Assembly (NCBI GenBank): GCA_944358985.1 | Contig: CALVSI010000002.1 | Location: 51,413 to 115,412, forward strand | Reading direction: 5' to 3' | Length of the DNA: 64,000 nucleotides | From: an uncultured Bacilli bacterium | GTDB taxonomy: Bacteria; Bacillota_I; Bacilli_A; RFN20; CAG-826 | Part shown: in pieces, positions 20,184 to 22,527 of the stretch | Numbering within the stretch: the stretch's first letter is position 1 | How the letters are laid out: each line of letters opens with the position of its first letter | Position numbers and translations under genes: made by a program | Notes under the pieces: model-generated | What the model saw: the letters and a program-made list of their open reading frames with translations, nothing else | What the model was told of the DNA's origin: nothing | Databases searched by the model: none

Positions 20184-20948
20184 ATGGAAGAAGAAATTAA
20201 ACAACAAGCAATAGCAATTAAAATTTCTAATTTAAATAAGTCATATGGCAAAAAACAAGTTCTCCATGATTTAAATTTAGAAGTCTATGAAGGAGAATTA
20301 TTTGGTTATGTTGGAAAAAATGGTGTTGGTAAATCCACTACTATTGATTGCTTAATAGGTGCTAAAAAATTTGATAGTGGACAAATTTTAATTAATGGAT
20401 TTGATATTAAAAAAGAATCATATAAAGCTAAAAAACAATTTGGTTATGTCGCTAGCGAACCAACGACATATGAAATGATGACAGGTTATGAATATTTGCA
20501 ATTCATTGGCTCTGTTTATGATATGAACGATGAAACATTCAAAAATAATGTTACTTATTTATCAAACAAATTAGACTTGCCTGATTCTGATTTAAAAATG
20601 GTTATATCTAGTTACTCACATGGTATGAAACAAAAACTTTGCTTGATAGCATCATTATTATCAAATCCAAAAGTGTGGATATTAGATGAACCCACTGTCG
20701 GTTTAGATATTATGGTATTTGAAACATTAAAAGAAATGATGCAAGAATTTGTAAAACATGGCAAAACAATTTTTATCACATCGCATAATATTGATTTAGT
20801 TGCTAAAATTTGTGATCGTGTTGCATTAGTAAATAAGGGTAAAATTCAAAAAATAATAGATTTAAAACAAGATCCTGATAAACGCTATCAGTTAAATAAA
20901 ATCTTTTTAGATATGTATAAGGAGGATAAAGATGATTGCCTTGCTTAA
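20184..20948 (+). CDS. EcsA-like ABC transporter ATP-binding protein.
   Basis: Walker A 'GKNGVGKSTTI'. Atypical signature 'YSHGMKQK', like EcsA 'FSKGMKQK' rather than LSGGQ. Walker B 'ILDEPTVGLD'. Confidence 0.7.
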   Translation: MEEEIKQQAIAIKISNLNKSYGKKQVLHDLNLEVYEGELFGYVGKNGVGKSTTIDCLIGAKKFDSGQILINGFDIKKESYKAKKQFGYVASEPTTYEMMTGYEYLQFIGSVYDMNDETFKNNVTYLSNKLDLPDSDLKMVISSYSHGMKQKLCLIASLLSNPKVWILDEPTVGLDIMVFETLKEMMQEFVKHGKTIFITSHNIDLVAKICDRVALVNKGKIQKIIDLKQDPDKRYQLNKIFLDMYKEDKDDCLA

Positions 20949-22527
20949 AAAAGAATTTAAGCTTAATCCTTTCTTTATCGTTCCAAATAAAAAGAATTGG
21001 TTTACTTTTATACTGGCAACAATATTGTTGGTTGGTTTGATAGTTATTGAAGTATATTTATTCAATTCGTTGTATGACCAATTTGATCAATATGATGGTG
21101 CTTCTTTTTCCTTTAGTGTTTTATTTTTATTAATTTTAGCGGCGATTTGCCTAGTTATTTGCATATTTTATGTTCAAAGAATATTTTATAATCGCTTAGA
21201 TATGTCGCTAATAATAAATAAGCCTATCGATTATTTAAAAATTATTTTTTCCAAATCTTTATATTGTTTGATAGTTAATTATATTTTTGCTGCATGTATA
21301 AATTTACCAATATTGTATTCGCTAGTAGACAATTATTTAATGACAGTGTTGTTTGGATTTTCTAGTTTGTTTTATCCTTTATTTTTAACCATTTTAAATA
21401 TGGGTATTGCATTTATATTATCAATACCAATTCAATATATTTATCGCTTATTAAAACAATATCCGATTGTTCAATTAGTTGTTGTAGCAATATTTTTATC
21501 CTTTGCTTGTTATTTGTACTCTCTTGTTTTAAATATTTTTATTGAGCTTTTGAACGAGAATTCGTTGGTTTTGATTTTTAGTCAAGAAAATTTAGCTTTG
21601 ATAAGTAATATATCTAAAAATGTTTATCCATATAGCTTGATTGCTATCTCGTTTTTAGATTATTCAAAAGGATTATATTTTCTTTTATTTTTATTTATTT
21701 CCCTTGCTGTTTTAGCTATTGGCATAACACTTATAGCTTTATTTTATGTTCGACTTAATCAATTTGAATATAGTGTTGTTCATAACAACAAACATCAATT
21801 TGAAATTTTAAAATCAAATAGGGCGATTATTAAAAAAGAATTGATGCTTTTATTTAAAGAAAATGATACCGCTTATTCATACACTAGTTTAATAATTTTG
21901 CAGCCAATTTTAACTTATCTAGTAATAAATGCAATTAATATTGCGCTTCTACGCGGTTCATTATCAATTTATATTTCAATTATGCCCTACTTATTAAACA
22001 ATTTTGATTTACTATTAGCGCTTTTATTTTCAAGTGTCATTTCCTTAAATGCGGTTAATATATATAAAAGCGAAGCCAAAACAATTAGAATAATGAAATA
22101 TATACCTTATTCAATGTATAGACACGTTTGTATTAAATTATTAATTCCTTATATTTGTTCATTTATTGCCACTGTTACAACATTTATTGTTCTTATTTCA
22201 ACATCACTTATTGGATTAGACACTTTCTTTATGGGAATGCTTTTTGCTTTAATTATTAATTTCGCTTTGATGACAATAACATTAAAAGAACAATTACGAA
22301 GTGGAAAATTTAAAAAAGTTAATAATTATTTAAGCAATTTCTTATCTTTTTTAATTCCTATTATTTTATGTGGTTTAAATATTCTTTTATCAGCTTTAAC
22401 AGGAATGTTAAATATATATGCATATTTAATCGATTTAGTAGTTGTTTTTGCACTTCTTGGTTATGTCATATATTATTTATTAAAACAATTTAAAAATGAT
22501 GTTTATGAACTGGAGGTAACAAATTAA
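20932..22527 (+). CDS. EcsB-like polytopic ABC permease.
   Basis: 531 aa with about 12 TM helices. Translationally coupled to the ATPase by a 17-nt overlap and an AAGGAGGAT RBS. Confidence 0.55.
   Translation: MIALLKKEFKLNPFFIVPNKKNWFTFILATILLVGLIVIEVYLFNSLYDQFDQYDGASFSFSVLFLLILAAICLVICIFYVQRIFYNRLDMSLIINKPIDYLKIIFSKSLYCLIVNYIFAACINLPILYSLVDNYLMTVLFGFSSLFYPLFLTILNMGIAFILSIPIQYIYRLLKQYPIVQLVVVAIFLSFACYLYSLVLNIFIELLNENSLVLIFSQENLALISNISKNVYPYSLIAISFLDYSKGLYFLLFLFISLAVLAIGITLIALFYVRLNQFEYSVVHNNKHQFEILKSNRAIIKKELMLLFKENDTAYSYTSLIILQPILTYLVINAINIALLRGSLSIYISIMPYLLNNFDLLLALLFSSVISLNAVNIYKSEAKTIRIMKYIPYSMYRHVCIKLLIPYICSFIATVTTFIVLISTSLIGLDTFFMGMLFALIINFALMTITLKEQLRSGKFKKVNNYLSNFLSFLIPIILCGLNILLSALTGMLNIYAYLIDLVVVFALLGYVIYYLLKQFKNDVYELEVTN

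Follow-up and report, generated by a model that had tools for sequence, protein, structure and literature searches.

The window analysed here, a stretch of 64,000 nucleotides (nt) with a G+C content of ~27% from a contig of an uncultured Bacilli bacterium (CALVSI010000002.1), carries the genes of an ATP-binding cassette (ABC) ATPase and its permease downstream of a gene for a SipW-type signal peptidase. By family assignment the pair is an ABC-2-type transporter, predicted to combine two ATPase copies with a single fused permease of 12 transmembrane (TM) helices. Its genes are a constant component, coupled in translation, of an envelope operon of eight genes whose synteny is conserved between genomes. 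The original prediction for this region was an EcsAB homologue of the kind found in Bacillus. The relatives of both subunits point to a different placement, namely a large, uncharacterised branch of ABC transporters in which the ATPases carry the signature YSHGM(K/R)QK and the permeases appear to be related to the Pfam families ABC_tran_2 and 12TM_1.

The transporter within a conserved operon

The open reading frames (ORFs) listed for the window include eight tightly packed ones on the plus strand between positions 15131 and 26062. They are given below together with the signature motif of the ATPase and a terminator-like hairpin; lengths are in amino acids (aa).

15131..15907, plus strand: secreted protein, 258 aa, with an N-terminal signal/anchor ending in TGTAAF; presumed SipW substrate
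15966..16964, plus strand: endoplasmic reticulum (ER)/SipW-type signal peptidase I, 332 aa, above the cut-off of TIGR02228, with additional TM segments at the N-terminus and a long, charged tail at the C-terminus
16961..18781, plus strand: membrane McrB-like AAA_5 NTPase, 606 aa, matching Pfam AAA_5, with a multi-pass N-terminal membrane domain
18792..20171, plus strand: McrC-N-like (DUF2357) Zn-ribbon protein, 459 aa, from DUF2357 and Zn-ribbon matches in the family
20184..20948, plus strand: ABC ATPase of the ABC-2/DrrA-like class, 254 aa, matching Pfam ABC_tran
20613..20639, plus strand: signature YSHGMKQKL, residues 144-152 of the ATPase, placed by alignment to nucleotide-binding domain (NBD) 1 of ABCA1
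20932..22527, plus strand: fused pseudo-dimeric permease, 531 aa, a distant relative of ABC_tran_2/12TM_1
22529..24952, plus strand: extracytoplasmic beta-helix protein, 807 aa, with an N-terminal TM anchor, from Beta_helix matches in the family
24956..26062, plus strand: lipoprotein, 368 aa, with lipobox LTSC, internal repeats and a C-terminal Listeria-Bacteroides repeat (Flg_new, TIGR02543)
26260..26285, plus strand: terminator-like hairpin following the operon's last gene, from a consensus scan only

The ATPase and permease genes overlap by 17 nt and are preceded by Shine-Dalgarno-like sequences (AAGGA upstream of 20184 and AAGGAGG upstream of 20932), and the beta-helix gene starts 1 nt past the permease stop. 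On the minus strand, a 202-aa ORF with a GTG start (24949-25557) lies antisense to the lipoprotein gene and probably is an artefact that arises from sense-strand codon composition.

A scan with the permease alignment, using one genome per GTDB species, returned 43 loci from metagenome-assembled genomes (MAGs) of uncultured gut Bacilli/Firmicutes (Candidatus Enteromonas, Enterosoma, Caccosoma and Scatosoma, 'Mollicutes' and Bacillales UBA bins), and further copies were found in Clostridia MAGs. The constant order begins with a secreted protein of 220-310 aa in one to three paralogues, followed by SipW, the AAA protein (600-630 aa), a protein of 420-465 aa, the ABC ATPase, the permease, a protein of ~800 aa and a lipoprotein of ~340-385 aa. 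Counted over the loci whose contig reaches far enough for the gene in question, SipW and the AAA protein are each present in 34/34, the ~800-aa protein and the lipoprotein each in 33/33, the 459-aa family in 37/38 and the ABC ATPase in 39/40; a secreted protein detectable by BLAST upstream of sipW is present in 21 of 24. Median intergenic gaps in the operon lie between -4 and +4 nt. Between the permease and the beta-helix gene the median gap is -1 nt, and these two genes are translationally coupled in every genome. The order has been kept despite considerable divergence of the orthologues, whose identity is down to 19-31% in the permease, 39% in the AAA protein and 51% in the ATPase. What lies on either side of the module varies from genome to genome, so that it behaves like a single unit.

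The physical coupling of a signal peptidase and an ABC transporter, which had been put forward from the window alone, is thus borne out by the presence of sipW in every evaluable species genome. The pair had also been described as lying directly after sipW and the AAA gene; it is indeed downstream of both, but the 459-aa gene (18792-20171) intervenes before the ATPase gene. In a minimal variant of the module (L005:13-3461 and L006; loci carry our own numbers) sipW overlaps the start of the ATPase gene by 4 nt, the permease and a beta-helix homologue follow, and the pair of AAA and 459-aa proteins is absent. A more distant variant (L049:6612-14011) encodes an 839-aa protein in which a TMEM164-family membrane domain is fused to an ABC NBD with the signature YSHGMKQKV, then a permease that is a genuine ABC_tran_2 member, an ORF of 150 aa and a Big_3 surface protein of 915 aa. 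Literature searches returned no description of the eight-gene operon or of the Pfam families involved, and none of the eight proteins in the window has a name in any source.

Several GTDB records that carry the module are titled Escherichia coli, Bacteroides uniformis, Alistipes onderdonkii, Paludibacteraceae, Hallerella or Lachnospiraceae ('cleanbin' MAGs; L017, L021, L030, L031, L032 and L034). These implausibly titled records are most likely mislabelled or contaminated bins.

Relationship of the ATPase and the permease to EcsAB

The window ATPase matches Pfam ABC_tran at 2.8e-27. Its Walker A (GKNGVGKST), Walker B/D-loop (WILDEPTVGLD) and H-loop (TSHN) motifs are intact, and Walker A, Walker B (DEP), D-loop and H-loop are conserved across all orthologous ATPases; the Gln of the Q-loop is changed to Ser (YVASEP). 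The protein is an ABC-2-class NBD with intact catalytic motifs and is predicted to be catalytically competent. As had been noted from the sequence, YSHGMKQK stands in place of LSGGQ: both the ORF and the motif were confirmed, and YSHGMKQKL aligns with the signature LSGGMQRKL of ABCA1 NBD1. Among 120 database homologues that are at least 60% identical, 119 have the form YSHGMKQK[LIV], and YSHGM[KQ]QK is present in 45/45 orthologues from the fetched loci, so the motif is a trait of the family and not a chance occurrence.

The best NCBIfam matches of the ATPase are DrrA, GldA and the gallidermin type, all of them below cut-off. NodI-type ABC-2 exporters are likewise among the best matches, and further ones include PmtA and PmtC, of the exporter of phenol-soluble modulins (PSM). 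NCBIfam holds no EcsA model, and EcsA and the window ATPase give the same generic best matches (DrrA, GldA, gallidermin type). The best matches in the PDB are ABCA1 NBD1 and TM0544, with NosF (1.5e-27) and Rv1218c also found. In a trimmed alignment that included ten real EcsA sequences, the window ATPase is 44% identical to an ATPase of Bacillus sp. N5-665 (L136; signature YSHGMRQKI), 41% to that of a Clostridia MAG (L054; YSHGMKQKL, with a 12TM_1 permease as partner), 38% to that of a Clostridium butyricum megaplasmid (L139; FSKGMRQKL, with a partner of 541 aa), 38% to CesC, which functions in cereulide export (MSKGMKQKL), and 34% to TimA. The identity to the ten EcsA sequences is 28-32%, about the same as to human ABCA1 NBD1 (31%).

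The signature had been regarded as the hallmark of EcsA. From 80 ecsA loci fetched from metagenomes 79 EcsA ORFs were recovered, and the counts given here use these real sequences. All 79 of the 79 carry FSKGMKQKV, which upholds the first half of that view, and the window ATPase and EcsA have in common S-x-G-M-K-Q-K, the replaced Q-loop Gln and DEPxVGLD. However, the same variant is found in CesC and in the stand-alone partners of 12TM_1/ABC_tran_2 permeases, which carry YSHGM[KR]QK; therefore, S-x-G-M-K-Q-K and the lost Q-loop Gln are not a hallmark of EcsA.

The comparison of the second subunit with EcsB was negative throughout. Pfam PF05975 (EcsB) gave no match to the window permease at E<=10, whereas real EcsB proteins from the fetched ecsA loci (~400-410 aa), used as the positive control, matched at 4.5e-123 and 4.1e-133. 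Aligning 29 permease orthologues with 33 EcsB sequences in hhalign gave a probability of 0.2% (E 0.32), and hmmsearch --max between the permease family and the EcsB family returned nothing in either direction. Placement of the ATPase with another ABC-2 subgroup had been named as the result that would speak against an EcsA identity, and the neighbour-joining tree broadly points that way: in 143 of 200 bootstraps the module ATPases group together, the EcsA sequences do so in 198 of 200, and a clade exclusive to the two was recovered in 0/200. The tree, with its limited sampling of families and its unsupported deep nodes, excludes EcsA orthology but does not fix the exact sister group.

The two systems are alike in being two-gene ABC systems of Firmicutes (Bacillus and Staphylococcus in the case of EcsAB) with an NBD of the DrrA-like class, and they differ in their neighbourhood. 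The ecsAB genes adjoin a hit gene, and EcsAB has been linked to the protease RasP, with the removal of peptides from the membrane as the proposed role (PMC2996298). Among our loci, L056 has a HIT-domain gene divergently upstream of ecsA. The ABC pair of the window sits with the sipW operon; its neighbours are the 459-aa and 807-aa genes, with no hit gene adjacent. That the pair is a true EcsAB orthologue, the same system as in Bacillus and acting via a RasP-type protease, is extremely improbable. The signature and the loss of the Q-loop Gln argue for it, as does a BLASTP match to EcsA with E 2e-38, but the identity in that match is just 27%, the EcsA sequences are no closer than ABCA1 NBD1 and more distant than CesC and the partners of 12-TM permeases, a permease of 531 aa with ~12 TM helices stands against an EcsB of ~400-410 aa, and PF05975, which matches true EcsB at the order of 1e-123, does not match it. 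Neither the 0/200 bootstraps nor the hhalign probability nor the missing hit gene is what such an orthologue should give. The term 'EcsAB homologue' for this pair is therefore not supported.

One Clostridia locus, L054 (positions 8267-12855 and 18280-18933), deserves separate mention. Its stand-alone YSHGMKQKL ATPase and 12TM_1 permease lie two genes from a HIT-family gene, and a Peptidase_M50 gene is ~8 kb from the ABC pair, which recalls the ecsAB-hit arrangement of Bacilli. The idea that stand-alone 12TM_1 pairs replace ecsAB beside hit in Clostridia was taken from this locus and rejected, as L141 and L142 did not repeat it; the arrangement in L054 is probably a coincidence.

The affiliation of the permease becomes apparent only at the level of profiles. 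The window permease has no Pfam match, even at E<=10, and word-indexed homologue searches gave 5 matches with the single sequence and 11 with the profile; the family is visible only by exhaustive profile search, which returned 11,915 representative clusters of proteins mostly ~530-570 aa long. Of the matches sampled, 68/74 belong to Pfam ABC_tran_2 (PF16949), occasional ones to ABC2_membrane_3 or ABC_export, and none to EcsB. Nearer relatives, the orthologue in L052 included, match 12TM_1 (PF09847), a homologue with 29% identity (P0005) has a weak match of the PF16949/PF09847 type, and the relative in L049 matches PF16949 above cut-off. The window permease is probably a divergent sister or member of ABC_tran_2/12TM_1, detectable as such only by profiles.

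The AlphaFold2 (AF2) model of the permease (predicted local distance difference test, pLDDT, 67.6; predicted template modelling score, pTM, 0.64) contains two repeats of one amphipathic helix and six TM helices, and its secondary structure together with a hydropathy scan gives ~12 TM helices. A KKE(F/L)xL motif opens each half (residues 6-11 and 301-307), and the two halves resemble each other in hhalign at E 6e-5 with a probability of 65%, which is a moderate to weak resemblance. A pseudo-dimeric permease with ~12 TM helices would imply a pump of the composition (NBD)2-(TMD)1, where TMD is the transmembrane domain. A Foldseek search of the model against the PDB returned nothing significant; the non-significant matches include the ABC permeases Rv1217c, MlaE, NosY (E 8.9) and CcmB, at E 0.97-9.7.

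The nearest counterparts of the pair are stand-alone 12-TM ABC pairs (L136, L054, L139 and L138, the last from Streptococcus salivarius). Their ATPases are 36-44% identical to that of the window, carry YSHGM(K/R)Q(K/R) or, in C. butyricum, FSKGMRQKL, and have also replaced the Q-loop Gln, and the permeases encoded downstream have 512-565 aa. The window permease profile matches the 552-aa partner in Bacillus sp. N5-665 at 1.6e-34 and, at E 8.5e-10, the 512-aa permease beside a YSHGMKQRL ATPase in a nonribosomal peptide synthetase (NRPS) cluster on a S. salivarius megaplasmid (L138:2998-5245). Unlike the window pair with its eight-gene operon, these pairs are two-gene units or stand in NRPS, sugar-utilisation or housekeeping contexts, and the window permease differs from theirs in falling below every Pfam threshold. 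The resemblance to CesCD and TimAB is confined to the ATPases; CesC (in L137:2525-4223) has the same SKGMKQK as EcsA, but CesD and TimB are separate permeases of 6-TM size (~270 aa) without a match to the window profile, and both systems sit in toxin-biosynthesis or regulator contexts.

Some orthologous ATPases of ~390 aa (P0054, P0063, P0068 and others) have a Response_reg receiver domain fused to the N-terminus of the NBD. In L052, which encodes such a receiver-fused ATPase (L052:10001-11188), a His_kinase and Response_reg pair (L052:1902-3949) lies just upstream of the module. The fusions and the adjacent two-component system suggest that the activity of the pump may be regulated and controlled by phosphorylation.

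The remaining products of the operon

The signal peptidase scores 59.8 bits against NCBIfam TIGR02228 (cut-off 51.85) and 65 bits against the SipW equivalog model, which is below the cut-off of 190; the motifs GSM, HRI and GDAN are readable in its translation. The 258-aa secreted protein occurs as one to three paralogous copies in related loci. The N-terminus of this family is basic, then hydrophobic, and ends in the consensus TGFAAW (TGTAAF in the window). In having an ER-type peptidase beside one to three paralogous secreted proteins, the operon resembles the SipW-TasA operons (tapA-sipW-tasA of Bacillus subtilis and sipW-bsaA of Clostridium perfringens), and the end of the signal in the window family, G-(T/F)-A-A-(F/W), resembles that of TasA, GTWAAF. 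On the other hand, no match to TasA/camelysin or TIGR04088 was found among 31 members of the 258-aa family in Pfam and NCBIfam, and no match to TasA in the PDB, so that neither hidden Markov models nor structures connect the two families. The label 'TasA-like' would rest on a motif seen by eye and on the adjacency of sipW, and is unproven. The SipW-TasA operons are not known to include an ABC transporter, an AAA/McrC-like pair or a beta-helix protein, and literature searches found no such operon described. A single-sequence AF2 model of the 258-aa protein was uninformative (pLDDT 32). Profile searches of the PDB with the 258-, 459-, 606- and 807-aa families gave nothing informative apart from Zn-ribbon matches; the hydrophobic N-terminus is the probable cause of a marginal match (E 0.017) to an archaeal pilin.

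The 606-aa protein matches Pfam AAA_5 (9.8e-5) and the PADLOC defence-candidate model PDC-M26A (6e-37), and contains GTGKS and the McrB-like motif DEFNIARVEYYF. In the 459-aa family, 16 of 29 members match Pfam DUF2357 (best 2.7e-8), a domain found N-terminally in McrC-like proteins, and the C-terminus holds a CPxC...CxxC zinc ribbon in which C421, C424, C438 and C441 are invariant. The domain search and the conservation among the 29 members revealed no nuclease domain and no conserved acidic/lysine triad. The two proteins thus have the AAA_5 and DUF2357 domains of McrBC, but no PD-(D/E)xK nuclease was found in the pair and the AAA protein is membrane-anchored. They look like McrBC-like motors that would not serve DNA cleavage; alternatively, PDC-M26A may actually describe this envelope module.

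Seven of 26 members of the ~800-aa family match Pfam Beta_helix PF13229 (best 5.3e-5), which points to a right-handed beta-helix, and none of the 26 matches the NosD model. The lipoprotein matches Pfam Flg_new (6.3e-7) and TIGR02543, the Listeria-Bacteroides repeat.

Outside the operon, the window contains a run of very large minus-strand ORFs at 29067-42289 (263, 849, 139, 1006, 318, 718 and 1019 aa). The 263-aa and 849-aa products have signal- or lipoprotein-like N-termini and Ser/Thr-rich linkers, and the 849-aa protein has, by eye, the look of the alpha-amylase family. The run may be a glycan-utilisation surface cluster.

The role of the pump and its significance

What could such a pump do within this operon? 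We tentatively favour the view that it serves the operon's own extracytoplasmic products, most plausibly as a partner-coupled energiser for assembly. ATP hydrolysis by the ABC pump would then be directed at the products that the same operon places outside the cytoplasm, and the pump could be a platform and energiser, or a force transmitter, for the downstream beta-helix protein and lipoprotein, much as NosFY acts on the beta-helix protein NosD and the lipoprotein NosL. The beta-helix protein and the lipoprotein, in turn, might help to build or maintain a surface structure made of SipW-processed subunits. This role is favoured because a pump of the ABC-2 type encoded with a beta-helix protein and a lipoprotein brings to mind NosFY, NosD and NosL, because the permease and beta-helix genes are coupled, and because in L049 a large surface protein again follows the pair.

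In NosDFY(L) an ABC-2 ATPase and permease, an extracytoplasmic right-handed beta-helix protein and a lipoprotein are encoded together, and the target of the pump is its beta-helix partner outside the cytoplasm, with no solute being moved across the membrane; the NosDFY entries 7o0y and 7o12 are among the matches of the structure search. The differences are considerable. NosY is a dimer of 6-TM subunits and the window permease a fused 12-TM protein, the 807-aa protein matches the generic Beta_helix and not NosD, the window has no copper or N2O-reductase context, and the structural match to NosY is not significant. Several points weigh against an assembly role. The analogy to NosDFY is one of architecture (ABC-2 pump, beta-helix protein, lipoprotein), with a ~800-aa family that has no match to NosD and a lipoprotein unrelated to NosL; none of the Foldseek matches of the permease, to NosY, MlaE, CcmB or Rv1217c, is significant (E 0.97-9.7), and the confidence of the permease model is moderate (pLDDT 67.6). 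Moreover, the closest ATPases whose systems have been characterised, CesC and TimA, are parts of exporters of small molecules, which would favour a true export substrate over the transmission of force.

Two alternatives keep the pump a transporter. It could clear signal or other hydrophobic peptides, extracting from the membrane the signal/anchor peptides cleaved by SipW or other amphipathic peptides, and so keep the peptidase and the membrane functional, along the lines of the model originally proposed for this locus, though minus the homology to EcsAB. The linkage of sipW to the ABC pair in 34/34 genomes, the 4-nt overlap by which sipW abuts the ATPase gene in L005, the handling of hydrophobic peptides or macrocycles by the nearest relatives (cereulide by CesC, a macrodiolide by TimA, and the S. 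salivarius NRPS pair) and the NCBIfam matches to PmtA and PmtC are in keeping with this. In Enterococcus faecalis, the secretion of peptide sex pheromones is likewise reported to need an ABC transporter, an Ecs-like one. The precedent of EcsAB and RasP (PMC2996298) also fits, but the permease is unrelated to EcsB, the eight-gene operon encodes no site-2 protease or SppA, and the ABC genes are at least as tightly coupled to the downstream beta-helix gene as to sipW; on balance, peptide clearance appears rather unlikely. Export of an envelope constituent other than protein, for instance a lipid, a glycolipid or a glycan, or of a secondary metabolite, needed by the surface structure or by a beta-helix enzyme, comparable to Wzm/Wzt, TagGH, DrrAB or CesCD, would agree with the matches to DrrA, GldA and NodI-type ABC-2 exporters, with the PDB relatives ABCA1 and ABCA3, which transport lipids, and Rv1217c/Rv1218c, a mycobacterial efflux pump, and with the frequent carbohydrate activity of beta-helix proteins, to which 7/26 of the ~800-aa orthologues can be linked by their Beta_helix matches. 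Against this stands a conserved core that has no glycosyltransferase, polymerase, lipid-synthesis gene, NRPS or polyketide synthase gene. The genes on its flanks vary from genome to genome, and we consider such an exporter unlikely.

A defence or immunity island, in which the McrBC-like pair and the ABC pump act against phage or toxin and the surface proteins are incidental neighbours, is very unlikely. The match of the AAA protein to PDC-M26A, those of the ATPase to generic AAA_21 and ABC-like defence models and the variable genomic contexts of the module could be understood in this way, but a single order of eight translationally coupled genes, maintained in both Bacilli and Clostridia, would be unusual for juxtaposed defence systems. 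Furthermore, the McrC-like protein has no detectable nuclease domain, the PADLOC matches of the ATPase reflect nothing more specific than a shared P-loop, neither the permease nor the 459-aa protein gives such a match, and the permease has no relatives in IMG/VR viral contigs.

Extending the favoured role of the pump as an assembly energiser to the operon as a whole leads to a bolder proposal, which is possible, if doubtful. The operon would be a previously undescribed envelope machine of uncultured gut Firmicutes, in which two cytoplasmic motors, the ABC-2 pump with its 12-TM permease and the membrane-anchored, nuclease-less McrBC-like pair, assemble or operate a surface filament or layer together with SipW, the beta-helix protein and the lipoprotein, the pump being an energiser of assembly and not a transporter of solutes.

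These results correct a tempting mis-annotation, since the S-x-G-M-K-Q-K signature does not identify EcsA. They also define a large unstudied branch of ABC transporters, with YSHGMKQK ATPases and 12-TM permeases, whose permease profile retrieves thousands of representative clusters, and within it one sub-branch that occurs as a fixed part of a strictly conserved operon, alongside an ER-type peptidase, a membrane-bound McrB-like motor, a beta-helix protein and a lipoprotein. This operon is carried by Bacilli and Clostridia of the gut that are abundant and uncultured. As an ABC-2 transporter whose permease is fused into one 12-TM chain, the pair is of a known kind; its operon may be a new envelope system. 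As a natural system, the operon lends itself to the question, likewise raised for EcsAB, of whether ABC pumps are functionally linked to signal peptidases. If it builds a surface structure, monoderm bacteria would have a new assembly pathway, and McrBC-like and ABC-2 motors a new use.

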